From Eledone cirrhosa (Eukaryota), in NCBI GenBank assembly GCA_964016885.1, contig OZ024749.1, positions 26,722,001-26,786,000 on the forward strand: a stretch of 64,000 nucleotides of DNA, in the 5' to 3' direction. A program made the translations under genes and the position numbers. The notes below the pieces were generated by a model, which had not been told where the DNA came from, ran no database searches, and was given only the letters and a program-made list of their open reading frames with translations. This document shows positions 5,832 through 22,275 of this stretch, piece by piece. How positions within the stretch are numbered: position 1 is the first letter of the stretch; every line of letters begins with the position of its first letter.

Positions 5832-5904
5832 GGGAGACATGATATGAAGGTTAAAACACACTTGTGAATAGTGCAGTTTTAAATCAACATGATATGTTGA
5901 TTTT

Positions 5905-7611
5905 CAAGAAATGGCAACCATCAACCACATAGACATAACGGAGGAGGATGTGGTGTACGCCATTGATGAAATTAGAACAGACTCGGCTGCTGGACCTGAT
6001 GGATTCCCAGCAGTTCTCCTAAAAATATGTAAGCGGGCCTTAGCAACTCCACTGAAGATGCTCTTCAGAAGCTCCTTGGCTAGCGGTGTACTACCCAGGG
6101 AGCTGAAAGAAGGCACAATATGCCCTATCCATAAAGGAGGTAGTAAAGCGGAGGCCAAGAACTATAGGCCAGTCTCCCTGACGTCGCATATCAGTAAGGT
6201 CATGGAGCGAGTCGTCAGAAAGAAACTAATCACTTTCCTCGAAGAAAATGACCGCCTGACTAGCACGCAACATGGCTTCCGCCCAGGAAGAAGCTGCTAC
6301 ATCACTACGACTGGGTACTGAGACAACTACTAGACAGCTCACATGTGGACGTGATATATCTTGACTTTGCGAAGGCCTTTGACAAGGTCGACCACGGAAT
6401 GATATGTCACAAACTACACGGACTCAGCATAACTGGAAAAGTAGGTGAGTGGCTGCATGGCTTCCTAAGGGACAGAAGCCAGGCAGTCGCAGCAAATGGG
6501 GCCCTCTCGAGGGAAACACCGATAACAAGTGGGGTGCCCCAGGGGACAGTCCTGGGACCACTACTGTTTTTGGTGGCTCTCTCGGACATGCCCTCTGTGG
6601 TGCATGCAACAACATCCCTCACTAGCTATGCTGATGACACTAAGGTAGCACAGGCAATCAAAAACCCGGCTGACGCTGCCCTTTTACAGCAGGATCTGGA
6701 TGCCATATACAGATGGGCGGAAGAAAACAACATGCAGTTTAATGCTGGCAAATTCCAAGCCCTACAATACAAACCTGCAAACACAAATATAGTGGAACAC
6801 AGCTACACAGGACCAGGAGGGACCGATATCCCCGTGTCAAAATCGATACGAGACCTGGGCATAGACATGAGCGATGATGCATCTTTTTCTTCACACATCA
6901 TGAAAGTGGCGACAACATGCAGACGACTCGCTGGCTGGATCTTGAGGACTTTCCGGACAAGAGATCGAGACACCATGTTGACACTGTGGAGGACTTTTGT
7001 CCTAAGCCGCCTGGACTACTGCTCCCAGTTGTGGTCACCCCATAGTGTCAAACTGACCACAGAGCTTGAGGCAATCCAGCGAAGCTACACCAAGAGGATT
7101 GCCAAGATGAGGGAGACAAGCTACTGGGAGAGGCTAAAGGAACTGAACCTCTACTCCTTGGAGCGAAGACGGGAGAGATACGCAGTGATCTACATGTGGA
7201 AAATCCTGGAGGGACTAGCACCAAACTTTGGCATTGGGAGCTGGACCAACCGTTGAACAGGACGTCACTGTGTGGTGCCAATGGTCCCGTCTTCCACATC
7301 TAGAATAAGGAGCAGGTATTGCAATAGCCTGGGATTCAAGGGCCCTCAACTCTTCAACAGGCTGCCGAGGCATCTGAGAGACTTGCATGGCGTGGAGGTG
7401 GATGTCTTTAAGAAACATCTCGACACCTTGTTATCCAGGATCCCGGATGAGCCCACAGCAAGACACGAGGGAAACCTAAGGGCAGCAGCAACAAACTCCC
7501 TCCTACACCAGTGGCCAACCTATACAGGCTGGAGATAAAATGTGTAGCAACAAGGGCGGTGCCCCAGCATGGCCTCAGCCGGATGGCTGAAACAGGTAAA
7601 AGAGTAAAAGA

Positions 7612-8312: not shown

Positions 8313-8370
<58 letters not shown>

Positions 8371-8374
<4 letters not shown>

Positions 8375-8935
8375 CAAATAACGAAACGAAATTAAATTTC
8401 GTTTCGTTTGTAACTCACTTTTGTATGACTGACGCTTAAACAATTAAGTTAAAGATGTACATCCATATATGTATACTGAAATACTAGTATGTATATGAAT
8501 ACACACACGTATACATATGTAGATGTACCAAGTTTTTTCACTGGTCACTTTACTGTGAGTGGCCAGCTATTCTGTATGTAAACACACAGACAAACCGGTT
8601 TTTAGAGTCATACTGGTTTTTGAGGAAACACCTTTCCTCTATTCTCCAGAAAGGCCGGAAGATAGGTAAATATTGCTGATGAGTTGTAACAACAACGAAA
8701 CTAGTTCAATATTCCTTGTCTGGCTTTCTGTAGAATAGAGGAAAGGTGTTTCCTCAAAAACCAGTATGACTCTAAAAACCGGTTTGTCTGTGTGTTTACA
8801 TACAGAATAGCTGGCCACTCACAGTAAAGTGACCAGTGAAAAAACTTGGTACATCTACATATGTATACGTGTGTGTATTCATATACATACTAGTATTTCA
8901 GTATACATATATGGATGTACATCTTTAACTTAATT

Positions 8936-8940
<5 letters not shown>
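8371..8940. mobile_element. Diverged solo palindromic copy of the 12.6-17.8 kb array unit
   Basis: ~220-bp inverted arms (8437-8660 / 8716-8938), homologous to the array unit, flanked by (TA)n. Confidence 0.9.
8670..8712 (+). ncRNA. Minimal type I hammerhead ribozyme (family B variant)
   Basis: atattg-CTGATGA-gttgt-aaca-acaac-GAAAC-TA-GTT-caatat. Confidence 0.85.
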
Positions 8941-12077: not shown

Positions 12078-12162
12078 ATATTTTTTTTTTATATATTATA
12101 TATATATTATATATATATTATATATATATATATATTATATAATGTATATATATTATAAAGAA

Positions 12163-12477
12163 GAGAGACGGTTTTAAATGTACATCCTCTGTTTATTATA
12201 TAACCATGGTGTACGTATTTCAAAGACGTAAAAATGATTACATAATAACCCTTTGATGTGTTCTCTTCAGACATGTGAAAAGTTGTGGTGTTTTGTTTTT
12301 GATATGCTACCACAACACTAATAACTACAGTAGCATATCAAAAACAAAACACCACAACTTTACACCCGTCTGAGGAGAACACGTCAAAGGGTTATTAAGT
12401 AATCACTTTGACATCTTTGAAATGCCTATAAGAGGATTATATAATAAATAGAGGATGTACATTTAAAACCATCTCTC
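12163..12477. mobile_element. Imperfect fold-back element with a hammerhead-like core in each arm
   Basis: Arms 12163-12310 / 12330-12477. Plus strand: CTGAGGA(12370)...gtcaaag...ctttgac...TGAAA. Minus strand: CTGAAGA...TGAAA-tacgta. Confidence 0.65.
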
Positions 12478-12754
12478 TTTATATAATATCGACACTCCGG
12501 TTAATACCTTATTGATAATACTCTAAGGAATAGTGAGTTACGTCTGTTTACGACAAAAGTCGGCGGATTAGCTAATTTCCTTAATTGAATAATATATATA
12601 AATATATAAATATACATATATATATATATATAGAAAAACGAATAACGAAACGAAATTAAATTTCGTTTCGCTTCTAACTCACTTTTGTATGACTGACGCT
12701 TAAACAATTAAGTTAAAGTGTACATCTATATATGTATACGGAAGTATCAGTAAG

Positions 12755-12836
<82 letters not shown>

Positions 12837-12993
12837 CACATATGTATACATATGCACATGTACCGAGCTTTTCACTAGACACTTTACAGTGAGTGTCCAG
12901 CTAGTCTGTATGTAAACAGACGAACCGGGTTTTAGAGTCATACGAGTTTTCAAGGAAACACATTTCCTCTATTCTCCAGAGAGCCAGACAGGA

Positions 12994-13036
12994 ATATTGG
13001 ACTAGTTTCGATGTTATTACATCTCATCAGCAATAT
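12994..13036 (-). ncRNA. Hammerhead ribozyme, array copy 1
   Basis: atattg-CTGATGA-gatgt-aata-acatc-GAAAC-TA-GTC-caatat. Confidence 0.88.
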
Positions 13037-13293
13037 ATACCTATCTTTCCGGCTTCTCTGGAGAATTGTAAAAGCACATATCGTTATATGCTTTTTCTAT
13101 GAAAATCAGTAGTGGGCAGACTAATTTGCATAGAACGTGAGTCATTGTACGCACCGGTTCAGCGGAAACGATAAAAACGAATAACGAAACGAAATTAAAT
13201 TTCGTTTCGCTTCTAACTCACTTTTGTATGACTGACGCTTAAACAATTAAGTTAAAGTGTACATCTATATATGTATACGGAAGTATCAGTATG

Positions 13294-13387
<94 letters not shown>

Positions 13388-13544
13388 CACATATGTATAC
13401 ATATGCACATGTACCGAGCTTTTCACTAGACACTTTACAGTGAGTGTCCAGCTAGTCTGTATGTAAACAGACGAACCGGGTTTTAGAGTCATACGAGTTT
13501 TCAAGGAAACACATTTCCTCTATTCTCCAGAGAGCCAGACAGGA

Positions 13545-13587
13545 ATATTGGACTAGTTTCGATGTTATTACATCTCATCAGCAATAT
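13545..13587 (-). ncRNA. Hammerhead ribozyme, array copy 2
   Basis: Identical motif to copy 1. Confidence 0.88.
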
Positions 13588-13890
13588 ATACCTATCTTTC
13601 CGGCTTCTCTGGAGAATTGTAAAAGCACATATCGTTATATGCTTTTTCTATGAAAATCATAGATGTACACTTTAACTTAATTGTTTAAGCGTCAGTCATA
13701 CAAAAGTGAGTTAGAAGCGAAACGAAATTTAATTTCGTTTCGTTATTCGTTTTTATCGTTTCCGCTGAACCGGTGCGTACAATGACTCACGTTCTATGCA
13801 AATTAGTCTGCCCACTACTGATTTTCATAGAAAAAGCATATAACGATATGTGCTTTTACAATTCTCCAGAGAAGCCGGAAAGATAGGTAT

Positions 13891-13933
13891 ATATTGCTGA
13901 TGAGATGTAATAACATCGAAACTAGTCCAATAT
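13891..13933 (+). ncRNA. Hammerhead ribozyme, array copy 3
   Basis: atattg-CTGATGA-gatgt-aata-acatc-GAAAC-TA-GTC-caatat. Confidence 0.88.
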
Positions 13934-14090
13934 TCCTGTCTGGCTCTCTGGAGAATAGAGGAAATGTGTTTCCTTGAAAACTCGTATGACTCTAAAACCC
14001 GGTTCGTCTGTTTACATACAGACTAGCTGGACACTCACTGTAAAGTGTCTAGTGAAAAGCTCGGTACATGTGCATATGTATACATATGTG

Positions 14091-14160
<70 letters not shown>

Positions 14161-14417
14161 CATACTGATACTTCCGTATACATATATAGATGTACACTTT
14201 AACTTAATTGTTTAAGCGTCAGTCATACAAAAGTGAGTTAGAAGCGAAACGAAATTTAATTTCGTTTCGTTATTCGTTTTTATCGTTTCCGCTGAACCGG
14301 TGCGTACAATGACTCACGTTCTATGCAAATTAGTCTGCCCACTACTGATTTTCATAGAAAAAGCATATAACGATATGTGCTTTTACAATTCTCCAGAGAA
14401 GCCGGAAAGATAGGTAT

Positions 14418-14460
14418 ATATTGCTGATGAGATGTAATAACATCGAAACTAGTCCAATAT
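14418..14460 (+). ncRNA. Hammerhead ribozyme, array copy 4
   Basis: Identical motif. Confidence 0.88.
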
Positions 14461-14617
14461 TCCTGTCTGGCTCTCTGGAGAATAGAGGAAATGTGTTTCC
14501 TTGAAAACTCGTATGACTCTAAAACCCGGTTCGTCTGTTTACATACAGACTAGCTGGACACTCACTGTAAAGTGTCTAGTGAAAAGCTCGGTACATGTGC
14601 ATATGTATACATATGTG

Positions 14618-14695
<78 letters not shown>

Positions 14696-14952
14696 CATAC
14701 TGATACTTCCGTATACATATATAGATGTACACTTTAACTTAATTGTTTAAGCGTCAGTCATACAAAAGTGAGTTAGAAGCGAAACGAAATTTAATTTCGT
14801 TTCGTTATTCGTTTTTATCGTTTCCGCTGAACCGGTGCGTACAATGACTCACGTTCTATGCAAATTAGTCTGCCCACTACTGATTTTCATAGAAAAAGCA
14901 TATAACGATATGTGCTTTTACAATTCTCCAGAGAAGCCGGAAAGATAGGTAT

Positions 14953-14995
14953 ATATTGCTGATGAGATGTAATAACATCGAAACTAGTCCAATAT
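14953..14995 (+). ncRNA. Hammerhead ribozyme, array copy 5
   Basis: Identical motif. Confidence 0.88.
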
Positions 14996-15152
14996 TCCTG
15001 TATGGCTCTCTGGAGAATAGAGGAAATGTGTTTCCTTGAAAACTCGTATGACTCTAAAACCCGGTTCGTCTGTTTACATACAGACTAGCTGGACACTCAC
15101 TGTAAAGTGTCTAGTGAAAAGCTCGGTACATGTGCATATGTATACATATGTG

Positions 15153-15232
<80 letters not shown>

Positions 15233-15489
15233 CATACTGATACTTCCGTATACATATATAGATGTACACTTTAACTTAATTGTTTAAGCGTCAGTCATAC
15301 AAAAGTGAGTTAGAAGCGAAACGAAATTTAATTTCGTTTCGTTATTCGTTTTTATCGTTTCCGCTGAACCGGTGCGTACAATGACTCACGTTCTATGCAA
15401 ATTAGTCTGCCCACTACTGATTTTCATAGAAAAAGCATATAACGATATGTGCTTTTACAATTCTCCAGAGAAGCCGGAAAGATAGGTAT

Positions 15490-15532
15490 ATATTGCTGAT
15501 GAGATGTAATAACATCGAAACTAGTCCAATAT
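15490..15532 (+). ncRNA. Hammerhead ribozyme, array copy 6
   Basis: Identical motif. Confidence 0.88.
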
Positions 15533-15689
15533 TCCTGTATGGCTCTCTGGAGAATAGAGGAAATGTGTTTCCTTGAAAACTCGTATGACTCTAAAACCCG
15601 GTTCGTCTGTTTACATACAGACTAGCTGGACACTCACTGTAAAGTGTCTAGTGAAAAGCTCGGTACATGTGCATATGTATACATATGTG

Positions 15690-15735
<46 letters not shown>

Positions 15736-15784
15736 CATACTGATACTTCCGTATACATATATAGATGTACACTTTAACTTAATT

Positions 15785-15836
<52 letters not shown>

Positions 15837-16084
15837 AATTAAGTTAAAGTGTACATCTATATATGTATACGGAAGTATCAGTATGCATACATATTTATAT
15901 GTATATATATATATATATATATAAATACACATATGTATACATATGCACATGTACCGAGCTTTTCACTAGACACTTTACAGTGAGTGTCCAGCTAGTCTGT
16001 ATGTAAACAGACGAACCGGGTTTTAGAGTCATACGAGTTTTCAAGGAAACACATTTCCTCTATTCTCCAGAGAGCCAGACAGGA

Positions 16085-16127
16085 ATATTGGACTAGTTTC
16101 GATGTTATTACATCTCATCAGCAATAT
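16085..16127 (-). ncRNA. Hammerhead ribozyme, array copy 7
   Basis: Identical motif on the minus strand. Confidence 0.88.
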
Positions 16128-16430
16128 ATACCTATCTTTCCGGCTTCTCTGGAGAATTGTAAAAGCACATATCGTTATATGCTTTTTCTATGAAAATCAG
16201 TAGTGGGCAGACTAATTTGCATAGAACGTGAGTCATTGTACGCACCGGTTCAGCGGAAACGATAAAAACGAATAACGAAACGAAATTAAATTTCGTTTCG
16301 CTTCTAACTCACTTTTGTATGACTGACGCTTAAACAATTAAGTTAAAGTGTACATCTATGATTTTCATAGAAAAAGCATATAACGATATGTGCTTTTACA
16401 ATTCTCCAGAGAAGCCGGAAAGATAGGTAT

Positions 16431-16473
16431 ATATTGCTGATGAGATGTAATAACATCGAAACTAGTCCAATAT
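16431..16473 (+). ncRNA. Hammerhead ribozyme, array copy 8
   Basis: Identical motif. Confidence 0.88.
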
Positions 16474-16634
16474 TCCTGTCTGGCTCTCTGGAGAATAGAG
16501 GAAATGTGTTTCCTTGAAAACTCGTATGACTCTAAAACCCGGTTCGTCTGTTTACATACAGACTAGCTGGACACTCACTGTAAAGTGTCTAGTGAAAAGC
16601 TCGGTACATGTGCATATGTATACATATGTGTATT

Positions 16635-16716
<82 letters not shown>

Positions 16717-16973
16717 CATACTGATACTTCCGTATACATATATAGATGTACACTTTAACTTAATTGTTTAAGCGTCAGTCATACAAAAGTGAGTTAGAAG
16801 CGAAACGAAATTTAATTTCGTTTCGTTATTCGTTTTTATCGTTTCCGCTGAGCCGGTGCGTACAATGACTCACGTTCTATGCAAATTAGTCTGCCCACTA
16901 CTGATTTTCATAGAAAAAGCATATAACGATATGTGCTTTTACAATTCTCCAGAGAAGCCGGAAAGATAGGTAT

Positions 16974-17016
16974 ATATTGCTGATGAGATGTAATAACATC
17001 GAAACTAGTCCAATAT
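16974..17016 (+). ncRNA. Hammerhead ribozyme, array copy 9
   Basis: Identical motif. Confidence 0.88.
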
Positions 17017-17173
17017 TCCTGTCTGGCTCTCTGGAGAATAGAGGAAATGTGTTTCCTTGAAAACTCGTATGACTCTAAAACCCGGTTCGTCTGTTTACAT
17101 ACAGACTAGCTGGACACTCACTGTAAAGTGTCTAGTGAAAAGCTCGGTACATGTGCATATGTATACATATGTG

Positions 17174-17255
<82 letters not shown>

Positions 17256-17512
17256 CATACTGATACTTCCGTATACATATATAGATGTACACTTTAACTT
17301 AATTGTTTAAGCGTCAGTCATACAAAAGTGAGTTAGAAGCGAAACGAAATTTAATTTCGTTTCGTTATTCGTTTTTATCGTTTCCGCTGAACCGGTGCGT
17401 ACAATGACTCACGTTCTATGCAAATTAGTCTGCCCACTACAGATTTTCATAGAAAAAGCATATAACGATATGTGCTTTTACAATTCTCCAGAGAAGCCGG
17501 AAAGATAGGTAT

Positions 17513-17555
17513 ATATTGATGATGAGATGTAATAACATCGAAACTAGTCCAATAT
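17513..17555 (+). ncRNA. Hammerhead ribozyme, array copy 10, core mutated (C3A)
   Basis: atattg-ATGATGA-gatgt...; otherwise identical to the other copies. Confidence 0.75.
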
Positions 17556-17712
17556 TCCTGTATGGCTCTCTGGCGAATAGAGGAAATGTGTTTCCTTGAA
17601 AACTCGTATGACTCTAAAACCCGGTTCGTCTGTTTACATACAGACTAGCTGGACACTCACTGTAAAGTGTCTAGTGAAAAGCTCGGTACATGTGCATATG
17701 TATACATATGTG

Positions 17713-17752
<40 letters not shown>

Positions 17753-17801
17753 CATACTGATACTTCCGTATACATATATAGATGTACACTTTAACTTAAT
17801 T

Positions 17802-17877
<76 letters not shown>

Positions 17878-18479: not shown

Positions 18480-21400
18480 ACCCAACACCCCTCCCCCCTA
18501 CCCCCACCCCCACGCACCACCATTGCTATTACGTGGACCAATCATAAAACAGAGCCCCCACGCATCACCAGTATTATTACGCGGACCAATCAGAAGCCAG
18601 AGGCCTATACTATCGCTTGCCTGGTTGCCTTTCAATATGATGGATGGATGGACTGCGGAATCCTGGAGAGTGGAGGAGAGAGAGAGAAAAATCTGGACGC
18701 TCAGCGACAATGCCAAAGATAAAGACAAATTCACCTCTTGGACGAGAATGCGAGCACTCCTCATTGTTTCGACCGCGGACGGCTAACATAACCCCATCGC
18801 CCCCCGCCCCCCACCGCCCCCAACCCCCAAACGCAATCCAAAACTTCAGAGTTGGTACCATAAATGTAGGCACCCTAAAGGGTCGCGCTAACGAGGTTGT
18901 AGAAATGCTTGAACGTAAGGAGGTCGATGTTTGTTGTATTCAAGAGACCAGGTGGAGGGGTGGGTCTGCTAGGTTCATTGAGGGTAAAAAACGATGTTAT
19001 AAGCTTTTCTGGGTGGGAAACGACGATGGGCTGGGTGGAGTAGGAATCATGGTAGCAGAAAAGTGGGCAGATAAGATAATAGACGTAAATAGAGTGAACG
19101 ACAGAATAATTAAAATACGACTTGTCCTCAATAGAACTACGGTGACAGTAATATCTGCGTACGCACCCCAATCCGGACTGCCCGGCACTATAAAAGACAG
19201 ATTCTATGAGACACTGATGCTAACTACCTCCCAAATATCCGACAGTGACTATATAATTATCGCAGGCGACCTAAATGGTCACGTTGGACAACATTGTGAC
19301 GGCTACGACGAAATCCATGGAGGCTATGGGTTTGGTACTAGAAATGAGGAAGGCTCCAGAATCCTGGAATTCTGTGATGCAAATAACCTAACTATCTGTA
19401 ACACTAACTTCAAAAAACGTGACAATCACCTGATCACCTATAGATCCGGGGAACACACAAGCCAGGTAGATTATATCCTTACCAGAAGACGTGACAGAGT
19501 GTCTGTTGTAAACACTAAATCCCTCCCCCATGAAGAATGCACCTCCCAACATAGACTGATAATTAGCGACCTCATAGTCAGGACGAGACGTACTCGACAG
19601 CAGAAGAGGACTATCCTCAGGAGAAAAATATGGAAGCTAAAGGACCCCACAGCCAGGAATAAATTTCAAAGCATATTACTTGATGCTTTCGACAGTAAGG
19701 AAGAACATTTAGAGTCGGACAATATAGAGGGAGAGTGGGAATTTCTGAAAGCAAACCTGCTGTTGGCGACAGACGAAGTCTGTGGCTGGAGCAGGCCTGT
19801 AGGCAGGAGGAGAGTAACATGGTGGTGGAACAGTAAGGTGGAGGGGTCAATTAAGGCCAAAAAGCAGGCTTGGAAAGTATGGCGGGATGGGGGAAGTAGA
19901 GAGGACTATCAAGTGGCCAGGAGGGAAGCTAGGAGACAAGTGTACTTAGCAAGAAGGGAAGCTGAGGAAAGAAAGTTCAAGCATGTTCTACAACGCGATG
20001 ACCAAAAACGTGAGGTGTTCAGGATTGCTAGGCAATGCGTCAAGGAAAACCGTGATATTGTCGGGGAGAAGTGTGTACTAAACGACGATGGCACACTTGC
20101 CATCACCGACGCTGATAAGAAGGTAGCTTGGAAGTGTCACTATGAAAGGCTACAAAATGAGGAGAATAAATGGGAGAAAGACAGTCTCCCCCATATCGAC
20201 CCAATAGAGGGACCAGCAGTGTTAGTCGAGGGGAGTATAATAAGTAAGGCAATCAAGGATATGAAGACGGGTAAGGCGGCTGGGCCTTCGGAAATAGTTG
20301 CTGAGATGCTGAAGGCATCTGGCACGGTGGGACACACCATGGTCACCCGCATAGTTAACCAAGTCGTACAGAATGGGGTTGTTCCGAAGGACTGGCATAG
20401 CAGCATCATCGTTAACTGTTATAAGGGTAAAGGAGACGCCCTCGATAGGAGTAACTATAGAGGCATTAAATTAATCGACCAGGTCATGAAGGTCACGGAA
20501 AAAGTAATAGCGCAACTAATCAGAGAGAGAATTGACCTAGATGAAATGCAGTTCGGGTTTGTGTCAGGCAAAAGTACCACAGACGCTCTTTTCATAGTAC
20601 GACAACTACAGGAGAAGTACCTAGCTACAGGTAAGCCCCTCTACTTAGCTTTTGTCGACTTGGAGAAAGCCTTCGACAGAGTCCCCCGCTCCATTATCTG
20701 GTGGGCTCTTAGAAAACTAGGCGTTGACGAATGGCTTGTGAGGGCTATACAAGCCATGTATAAAGAAACAGTCAGCAAGGTTAGAATTAACAACGAATAT
20801 AGTGAAGAGTTTAGCGTAAAAGTTGGCATCCATCAGGGCTCTGTTCTCAGCCCACTACTATTTATTATTGCCCTTCAGGCTATAACAGAGGAGTTCAAGA
20901 CAGGCTGCCCATGGGAACTCCTATACGCAGACGACCTGACACTCATAGCGGAATCAATGGCCGAGCTAGAGAAGAAATTCCAAACATGGAAGCACGTCCT
21001 AGAGTCAAAAGGACTTAAAATTAACCTGGCTAAGACCAAAGTACTAGTTTGTAGGAAAGAAAACAAGGCGGCGGTCCCTTCTGGGAAATGGTCGTGCTCG
21101 GTGTGTAGGAAAGGCGTAGGTAGAAACTCCATTTTATGTCCTAAATGCAAAGTATGGGTGCATAAAAGATGTAGTGGGATCACAGGTAAGCTAACTAAGA
21201 ACATAGATTTTACATGTGGCCGGTGCTCTGGTGCAATAAGTAGCAGCAAGTGCCCACAAAATACTAGCTCTTTCAATTGCGCAGAGGGTTCTATAGAAAT
21301 AGTGGACAGCTTCCGTTACCTGGGCGATAAAATCAGCAGTGGGGGAGGGTGCTCTGAAAGTACTGTAGCTAGAGTCAGAACTGGTTGGAAAAAGTTCAGA

Positions 21401-22275
21401 GAGCTTATACCACTATTAGCTGCTAAAGGGTTCTCACTAAAAATGAAAGGCAGGTTGTACGATGCCTGCATACGAACAGCAATGCTGCATGGCAGTGAGA
21501 CCTGGGCATTGTGTGCAGAGGATATACGCAGACTAGAGAGGAACGAAGCTTGCATGCTCCGCTGGATGTGTAACAGTAATATACGTGAACGGCAAAGCAT
21601 AAACGAACTAAGGAAAAAATTAGAGATAAGAGGGATCAGATGTTGTTTACTCGAGAGAAGGCTACGTTGGTATGGACACGTGATGCGCATGAAAGTCGAC
21701 AGCTGTATAACAAAGTGCAGGGCAATAAAGATAGACGGTAGTCACGGAATAGGCAGACCTAGAAAAACCTGGGACGAGCTGATAAACTCCGACATCACAC
21801 ACTTACACCTCTCCAAGACAATGTCACTGGACCGAGACCTTTGGCGGTACTCAGTAACAGAGAAGACCCGCCTTACCTAAATATATAGTAAAACCTACTC
21901 CAGCCAGTAGGCATCTCTAACAAAATACACCCCGTCCCACCACCACCACCCCCTCCCCATCCACACCACCCCGTTCTATGTAAAGTTATGTTGGTGCCGC
22001 GCCATCGAGGCCGAAACAAATGAGATCGTGTAGGTGTCACGACAAAAAAACACACAGTCCACGCTGTAATGTGGCCGTGTAGGCAACACGGTAAAAACCT
22101 CCCAGACCCACACTGTAAATGTGGTTGGTGTTAGGAAGGGCATCCAACTGTAGAAAACCTGCCAGACAGTCCTATGCGAGCAAGACAATCACTCTTGCCT
22201 CAAGTGGGACTACCCCCGTCCAAACCCATGCAAGCGTGGAACACGGACGTTAAACGTTGATGATGATGATGATGA
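18480..22275 (+). mobile_element. Apparently full-length RTE LINE
   Basis: Single ORF, ~380-bp 3' UTR containing ggttggtgttaggaagggcatcca, and a (GAT)n tail at 22258-22275. The 5' boundary is approximate. Confidence 0.88.
18644..21880 (+). CDS. RTE-clade LINE ORF: APE endonuclease + reverse transcriptase + PHD-like finger
   Basis: Uninterrupted 1078 codons. APE motifs GTINVGTL, CIQETRW, AGDLNGHVG, SQVDYIL, SQHRL. RT motifs NYRGIKL, FVDLEKAFDRV, GIHQGSVLSPLLF, YADD. RTE C-terminus GSETW, RRLRWYGHV, GRPRKTW. The start may be the ATG at 18710. Confidence 0.96.
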   Translation: MDGLRNPGEWRREREKSGRSATMPKIKTNSPLGRECEHSSLFRPRTANITPSPPAPHRPQPPNAIQNFRVGTINVGTLKGRANEVVEMLERKEVDVCCIQETRWRGGSARFIEGKKRCYKLFWVGNDDGLGGVGIMVAEKWADKIIDVNRVNDRIIKIRLVLNRTTVTVISAYAPQSGLPGTIKDRFYETLMLTTSQISDSDYIIIAGDLNGHVGQHCDGYDEIHGGYGFGTRNEEGSRILEFCDANNLTICNTNFKKRDNHLITYRSGEHTSQVDYILTRRRDRVSVVNTKSLPHEECTSQHRLIISDLIVRTRRTRQQKRTILRRKIWKLKDPTARNKFQSILLDAFDSKEEHLESDNIEGEWEFLKANLLLATDEVCGWSRPVGRRRVTWWWNSKVEGSIKAKKQAWKVWRDGGSREDYQVARREARRQVYLARREAEERKFKHVLQRDDQKREVFRIARQCVKENRDIVGEKCVLNDDGTLAITDADKKVAWKCHYERLQNEENKWEKDSLPHIDPIEGPAVLVEGSIISKAIKDMKTGKAAGPSEIVAEMLKASGTVGHTMVTRIVNQVVQNGVVPKDWHSSIIVNCYKGKGDALDRSNYRGIKLIDQVMKVTEKVIAQLIRERIDLDEMQFGFVSGKSTTDALFIVRQLQEKYLATGKPLYLAFVDLEKAFDRVPRSIIWWALRKLGVDEWLVRAIQAMYKETVSKVRINNEYSEEFSVKVGIHQGSVLSPLLFIIALQAITEEFKTGCPWELLYADDLTLIAESMAELEKKFQTWKHVLESKGLKINLAKTKVLVCRKENKAAVPSGKWSCSVCRKGVGRNSILCPKCKVWVHKRCSGITGKLTKNIDFTCGRCSGAISSSKCPQNTSSFNCAEGSIEIVDSFRYLGDKISSGGGCSESTVARVRTGWKKFRELIPLLAAKGFSLKMKGRLYDACIRTAMLHGSETWALCAEDIRRLERNEACMLRWMCNSNIRERQSINELRKKLEIRGIRCCLLERRLRWYGHVMRMKVDSCITKCRAIKIDGSHGIGRPRKTWDELINSDITHLHLSKTMSLDRDLWRYSVTEKTRLT

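Follow-up and report, generated by a model that had tools for sequence, protein, structure and literature searches.

Hammerhead array and repeat unit

We analysed a stretch of 64,000 nucleotides (the window) of the Eledone cirrhosa genome (GCA_964016885.1, contig OZ024749.1, positions 26,722,001 to 26,786,000 of the forward strand), in which positions 12636..17806 hold an array of repeated units with hammerhead ribozymes. This array is very probably a copy of a non-LTR (long terminal repeat) retrozyme, a non-coding and non-autonomous element of the Penelope-like element (PLE) type that was inserted in trans by a PLE. The initial annotation, made from the sequence alone, had placed ten hammerhead units here, and all ten cores were located, seven on the + strand and three on the - strand (Table 1). 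As it had stated, nine of them are intact (CUGAUGA), the core at 17513 reading AUGAUGA (C3A), and the cores combine a stem I of 6 bp and a stem II of 5 bp with the cleavage triplet GUC; stem III consists of 2 bp with a UA loop (ACUAGU). The Rfam search that the annotation proposed gave no matches for the ten cores at the gathering score, although in E-value mode all ten match Hammerhead_HH9 with 27-35 bits (E from 5e-6 to 1.5e-3), below the cut-off of 52.

In PMC4209133, the canonical metazoan type I hammerhead is defined by a helix I of ~6 bp, a helix II of ~4 bp and a helix III of 1-2 bp with a palindromic loop of 2-4 nt, a description that the window cores fit, whereas the minimal hammerhead of PLEs has no helix III and a helix II of 7-8 bp with an unpaired 5' base, which the window cores do not resemble. 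By its predicted helices, the window ribozyme is a canonical metazoan type I hammerhead of the dimer type, with a palindromic helix III, and not the minimal form invoked by the annotation.

The unit comprises 466 nt plus a TA tract; it is numbered from the base after the tract (14156), and cleavage is predicted after unit position 299. Apart from (TA)n length the units are almost identical, as had been claimed, with array segments 99.1-100% identical to the reference unit and neighbouring + strand cleavage sites 527-543 nt apart, a spread due to (TA)n length. The unit length of ~530-550 nt given in the annotation agrees with this spacing but not with most copies elsewhere in the genome, which measure 469-471 nt and have no expanded TA tract. 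Expansion of the internal TA (e.g. 14622-14689) to 13-42 repeats is seen only in some copies of the subfamily nearest to the window, and elsewhere it amounts mostly to 2-3 bases. The annotation was also right that there is no real open reading frame (ORF): the longest one beginning with ATG in a unit dimer has 60 aa, part of it TA tract. GC content is ~0.31, i.e. below 50%, and the monomer fold is more stable than those of shuffled sequences (z = -11.9, 0 of 100 shuffles), to which the TA tract contributes in part. Units with complete hammerheads follow one another directly, four of them in a row on the + strand in block 1.

Architecture of the array

The ten units do not form the simple array described in the annotation, since it flips strand three times and includes truncated units. 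Instead of running head-to-tail, they are arranged in two 5'-to-5' blocks within (TA)n (Table 1). Not noted in the annotation were the inverted arrangement of two arms, the insertion into (TA)n and the fixed positions of the two 3' ends. The outer ends of block 1 lie at unit positions 126 and 59, and those of block 2 at 59 on either side. A separate insertion in the window, which belongs to a diverged subfamily (85-92% identical) and has one hammerhead, is laid out like block 1.

Block 2 looks, from its sequence, like a later fold-back duplication of block 1 or an assembly error. In favour of a fold-back, junction J2 matches J1 exactly when reverse-complemented, and the variant at unit position 312 follows the order expected of a fold-back (block 1, C,C / C,C,A,A; block 2, C / C,C,A). 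Folding back at the central (TA)23, copying back through the junction and returning to the right end would produce block 2.

Genome-wide family

The genome-wide search that had been suggested for the unit revealed a dispersed, high-copy family. The exact 40-nt core has 1,385 matches in the 3.0-Gb genome (control 0) and the relaxed core of the ACUAGU type 40,258 (control 3); nearly all of the relaxed-core matches listed belong to the window family (family A) or to a diverged relative (family B). Some 40,000 hammerheads of the ACUAGU type represent a sizeable fraction of the genome. Family B, though much diverged, has the same layout and the same two end sites as family A. Its units (L061:8600-9901, L062, L045, L131-L160) measure ~420-540 nt, have the triplet GUA and are common among the first 100 relaxed-core matches listed. 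Across 17 chosen A and B variants, stem pairing holds in 95.6% of cells, as compared to 35-49% in slid controls, and stems I and II covary between subfamilies, with six pairs altered on both sides, mostly reflecting the one split between A and B.

The family is not a product of assembly, because the unit and varied inversion junctions are also present in contigs of three public runs (one sample). One contig of 499 nt (run X4, depth 2.4) wraps a single unit, which fits a tandem or a circle; it was not used. A loose-end motif taken from the public-run contigs had no matches in the genome.

Insertion rule: one short and one long end

Outside the window, 52 loci were parsed, consisting of the 20 best BLAST matches and 32 taken in order along C1, and removal of one duplicate left 51; the very long array L123-L125, whose far end was not reached, was omitted. 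Two arms are present in 36 of the 51, and in all 32 of these that have both ends classifiable, a short end (unit positions 54-60) is paired with a long end (125-128). The classified arm ends (n = 90) divide into 45 short and 45 long, 40 of the latter exactly at 128. The target of family insertions is (TA)n, up to which the arms run at these fixed internal ends ~70 nt apart, and junctions of the long end with (TA)n number 1,929 genome-wide (control 0). Along C1 from 1 to 81 Mb, the end/(TA)n junctions listed first (56 long, 71 short), which partially overlap the 32 loci, form 34 long+short, 2 short+short and 0 long+long back-to-back pairs within 5 kb. Paired arms resemble each other more closely than the median outside arm in 32 of 32 loci (31 outside the window and the diverged insertion inside it), but in only 7 of the 32 is no outside arm closer than the partner, so that a shared template and a shared age are not separated.

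A one-armed copy has, at its 5' junction, a 36-nt inverted target duplication around a TA tract (L102:1612-1680). The array L123-L125 (G000:C1:95621000-95646900) is a single arm of more than 50 units in which a variant recurs every 6-7 units, which suggests higher-order amplification after insertion.

Table 1. Features of the retrozyme insertions in the window
Feature	Position	Strand	Remarks
Hammerhead 1	12994..13036	-	Intact
Hammerhead 2	13545..13587	-	Intact
Hammerhead 3	13891..13933	+	Intact; predicted cut after 13927
Hammerhead 4	14418..14460	+	Intact; predicted cut after 14454 (unit position 299)
Hammerhead 5	14953..14995	+	Intact
Hammerhead 6	15490..15532	+	Intact
Hammerhead 7	16085..16127	-	Intact
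Hammerhead 8	16431..16473	+	Intact
Hammerhead 9	16974..17016	+	Intact
Hammerhead 10	17513..17555	+	Core C3A
Reference unit, 466 nt	14156..14621	+	Followed by (TA)34 at 14622-14689
Short 3' end site	14209..14215	+	Unit positions 54-60; putative internal priming site 1
Long 3' end site	14280..14283	+	Unit positions 125-128; putative internal priming site 2
Tail between short and long end sites	14210..14283	+	13-bp hairpin near 14243-14271
ATGCAAAT	14323..14330	+	88-101 nt upstream of core; retained in diverged family B; candidate promoter element
Block 1 left arm	12634..13659	-	Unit 191-466, TA, full unit, TA, 1-126; long-site end in (TA)n
Block 1 right arm	13659..15789	+	Unit 31-466, three full units, 1-59; short-site end in (TA)n
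(TA)23 separating the blocks	15788..15833		Putative fold-back centre
Block 2 left arm	15832..16359	-	Unit 31-466, TA, 1-59; short end
Block 2 right arm	16359..17806	+	Unit 191-466, two full units, 1-59; short end
Junction J1, back-to-back	13659..13659		Unit positions 191 / 31
Junction J2	16359..16359		Exact reverse complement of J1
Left target (TA)n	12617..12632
Right target (TA)35	17805..17874
Diverged insertion	8368..8940		Back-to-back arms; one long and one short end, each in (TA)n

Penelope-like elements of the genome

A first look at the genome gave 10,597 GIY-YIG candidates, among which 150 matches were scored and 50 of these fetched. The PLE families sampled in this way encode a reverse transcriptase (RT), a CX4CXXC linker and, at the C-terminus, a GIY-YIG domain, and are Neptune-like, judging by the Neptune/Nematis domain layout of PMC8557442. 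One intact Neptune-like ORF, that of L051, has 938 aa. They end in (TA)n, with hammerhead-like motifs upstream of the ends, and the autonomous PLEs combine a short with a long end in 11 of 12 back-to-back pairs (duplicates counted once). In three PLE families (among L021-L070, e.g. L051, L057, L068) the hammerhead-like cores start with UUGA and have A at position 8 (U3-A8 for C3-G8), and in one of the three GCAAC replaces GAAAC.

The window element has no ORF combining RT and GIY-YIG such as defines an autonomous endonuclease-positive (EN+) PLE, nor did we find a PLE ORF adjoining on the same strand in 30 relaxed-core and 38 variant-core loci. At one locus (L130), a retrozyme is joined directly to a 5'-truncated PLE, with one outer end long and the other short. 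For this candidate co-insertion, divergence from the majority is 2.4% versus 1.1-1.3%, ages that do not settle it. At L003:5151-5900, a young family A copy abuts, in the same orientation, a broken RT remnant that we take to be Naiad-like.

Interpretation and alternatives

Copy number, covariation and insertion anatomy support three proposals of the initial annotation, namely that the element is a retrozyme, that its hammerhead is of the dimer type and that a helper RT mobilised it. That the helper was probably a PLE follows from the paired, inverted arms, the (TA)n tracts used as target and the fixed pair of 3' ends. The best explanation of the unit is that it is built like a PLE pseudo-LTR, with a candidate promoter, hammerhead, short end site, tail and long end site.

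Under this explanation, the tandem arms would be transcribed, possibly from the conserved ATGCAAAT upstream of the core, which we take to be an octamer motif and whose role as a promoter element is a guess. Paired hammerheads would process the transcript into monomers, with circularisation as a possible next step, unless the RNA remained an uncut multimer. A Neptune-like RT/GIY-YIG complex, probably a dimer, would then cut both strands of a (TA)n tract and prime two cDNAs, one from each of the two end sites (short and long), via a match of 2-4 nt (AU). Both cDNAs would extend upstream for a variable distance and be joined end to end, resulting in back-to-back arms, and block 1 of the window would be one such PLE-made insertion. 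In vitro work on Poseidon of Anolis (PMC11167929) has described two internal start sites, the cutting of both strands as well as their extension, and AT-rich targets, and a PLE dimer has been predicted there.

We tentatively propose a stricter version, in which the PLE complex is two-headed and its subunits are each bound to one priming site, the short or the long. The two would prime opposite strands of a single (TA)n cut, copy a circular retrozyme RNA as twin rolling circles and be able to switch between retrozyme and PLE RNAs. If true, this version would account for the tail and the inverted copy of PLEs, and the insertions would be direct genomic evidence of a Neptune-like PLE mobilising a retrozyme that has no detected homology to its helper.

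Several points weigh against the main explanation, beginning with the limit already given for the covariation. One-armed loci make up 15 of the 51, and 4 of the 51 are unclassifiable. Comparison of the unit with the 50 GIY-YIG loci found only copies of families A and B and no homologous pseudo-LTR, and by eye no clear motif is common to the PLE tails and the retrozyme tail. A second junction of a PLE and a retrozyme (L012) has two long ends, and both this junction and L130 could stem from later deletions. In PMC11167929, the start sites were used with no strand bias and hammerhead cleavage was dispensable for insertion, while in the bioRxiv preprint 10.64898/2026.07.22.740005 cleavage occurred in only one of nine retrozyme dimers tested.

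Arms longer than one unit (49 of 86) and arms passing the cleavage site (76 of 86) are frequent, though these counts are inflated by the choice of loci that hold a hammerhead; a cut linear monomer was therefore not the usual template, which leaves a circle or an uncut multimer. We rate it as plausible, though less likely than not, that the same element and helper used an uncut multimeric transcript, the hammerhead rarely cutting and no circular RNA being formed. The inner (5') junctions are spread along the unit: of 92 arm 5' ends, 4 fall no more than 7 nt from the cut site, where ~3 are expected by chance, but a circular template would equally give no enrichment there. Tandem units inside one arm differ by 0-10 bases, and uncut RNA was the main in vitro substrate in PMC11167929, both in line with a multimer; on the other side stand the covarying stems, a core conserved in both family A and family B, and the circles demonstrated for retrozymes of coral, mussel and axolotl (PMC7229834).

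A narrower doubt concerns only block 2 (15832-17806), which might be an assembly artefact of a fold-back read, leaving block 1 as the real insertion. Of the 35 two-armed blocks classified, only block 2 is short+short; it also reproduces J1 without a change and has a TA palindrome at its centre, and no contig of the public runs examined spans the array. We consider an artefact rather unlikely, as block 2 carries five private variants, a palindrome can fold back in vivo as well, another compound locus exists (L108), and the family with its inversion junctions recurs in the public-run contigs.

It is improbable that, instead of forming a self-propagating non-coding family, the units are pieces of a pseudo-LTR lost by an autonomous PLE outside our sample. 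The PLE sampling was partial, as stated above, and truncated PLE ends are common in the genome; but the units stand in exact register, 15 to more than 50 of them consecutively and without intervening ORF sequence, no arm continues into an intact PLE ORF on the same strand in 52 family A and 30 relaxed-core loci, and the copy at L003 abuts only a broken remnant. An ordinary satellite or miniature inverted-repeat transposable element (MITE) that had multiplied through recombination at the DNA level or through cut-and-paste, and whose hammerhead was incidental, could account for the long tandem arrays at some loci (L123-L126) and for inverted ends in TA, but is very hard to reconcile with two ends that differ by a tail of fixed length, inner junctions that are variable 5' truncations, the same end pattern in autonomous PLEs and covarying stems.

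Comparison with known elements

Non-LTR retrozymes and their circles were described in PMC7229834, where PLEs are named as the likely helper, and the bioRxiv preprint, in whose accessible text no mollusc is sampled, argues that they are non-autonomous PLE sequences. The class of element is already published, and the window family is a real, young and abundant addition to it. Like the retrozymes of these two sources, it has tandem units that are non-coding, low in GC and equipped with one canonical type I hammerhead apiece, has a self-paired fold and thousands of copies, and coexists with PLEs. Its units of 469-545 nt compare with 150-450 nt in PMC7229834 and lie within the 51-972 nt of the preprint. 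At most loci the insertion in (TA)n has two arms, inverted relative to each other, and asymmetric ends at fixed positions, a structure not found described for retrozymes in the accessible parts of these sources.

The insertions share with EN+ PLEs, namely Neptune/Nematis (PMC8557442) and Poseidon (PMC11167929), the partial tandems, an inverted 5'-truncated copy, a tail at one end, the hammerhead upstream of the ends, an AT-rich or (TA)n target and internal start sites. In contrast to those elements, the window family has no RT or GIY-YIG ORF, its arms may contain many units, and its tail is ~70 nt rather than 30-40. End pairing is also near-obligatory here, whereas PMC8557442 reports, besides an inverted copy, that the tail often lies at one end, calling the mechanism of tandem and inverted PLE insertions undefined, and the in vitro work saw no strand bias. 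Non-autonomous Chlamys PLEs such as MRC1 (PMC8557442) are likewise of PLE type and form multicopy head-to-tail insertions, but their 3' ends are similar to those of their autonomous partners, and they belong to a clade described there as having no canonical hammerheads, whereas the window family has a hammerhead, and for it no homology to a partner was found.

No paper on the window family or on strict end pairing was found in the literature searched, which did not extend to Repbase, Dfam, subscription journals or supplements. Published support for the mobilisation of retrozymes by PLEs consists of co-occurrence and pseudo-LTR homology; here, the PLE signature is seen in thousands of insertions that are young, short and non-coding and that obey a near-strict short+long rule common to autonomous PLEs, and the evidence for PLE-type mobilisation is unusually clear. 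A sharp prediction follows from the rule, and the insertions offer a small substrate with which to test it in vitro.

Other features of the window and genome

Two RT-bearing regions of the window were considered as the helper and rejected. The first (18641-21880, + strand) is an open 1079-aa ORF of the long interspersed nuclear element (LINE) type with an APE endonuclease, an RT and, following the latter, a PHD finger (residues 819-862), and has no link to the unit. The second (5893-7256, + strand) is an RT match split across two frames, containing RT only and also having no link to the unit. The AT-rich stretch at 40-45 kb of the window yielded no convincing ORF in the mitochondrial code. Just left of the array (12161-12479) lies a 150-nt inverted repeat, 88% complementary, with a 19-nt loop and adjoining TA-rich sequence. 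Elsewhere in the genome, another hammerhead-bearing repeat family has a longer stem III region (L031:25, L059:2874, L063:2358, L015:7499, L128).

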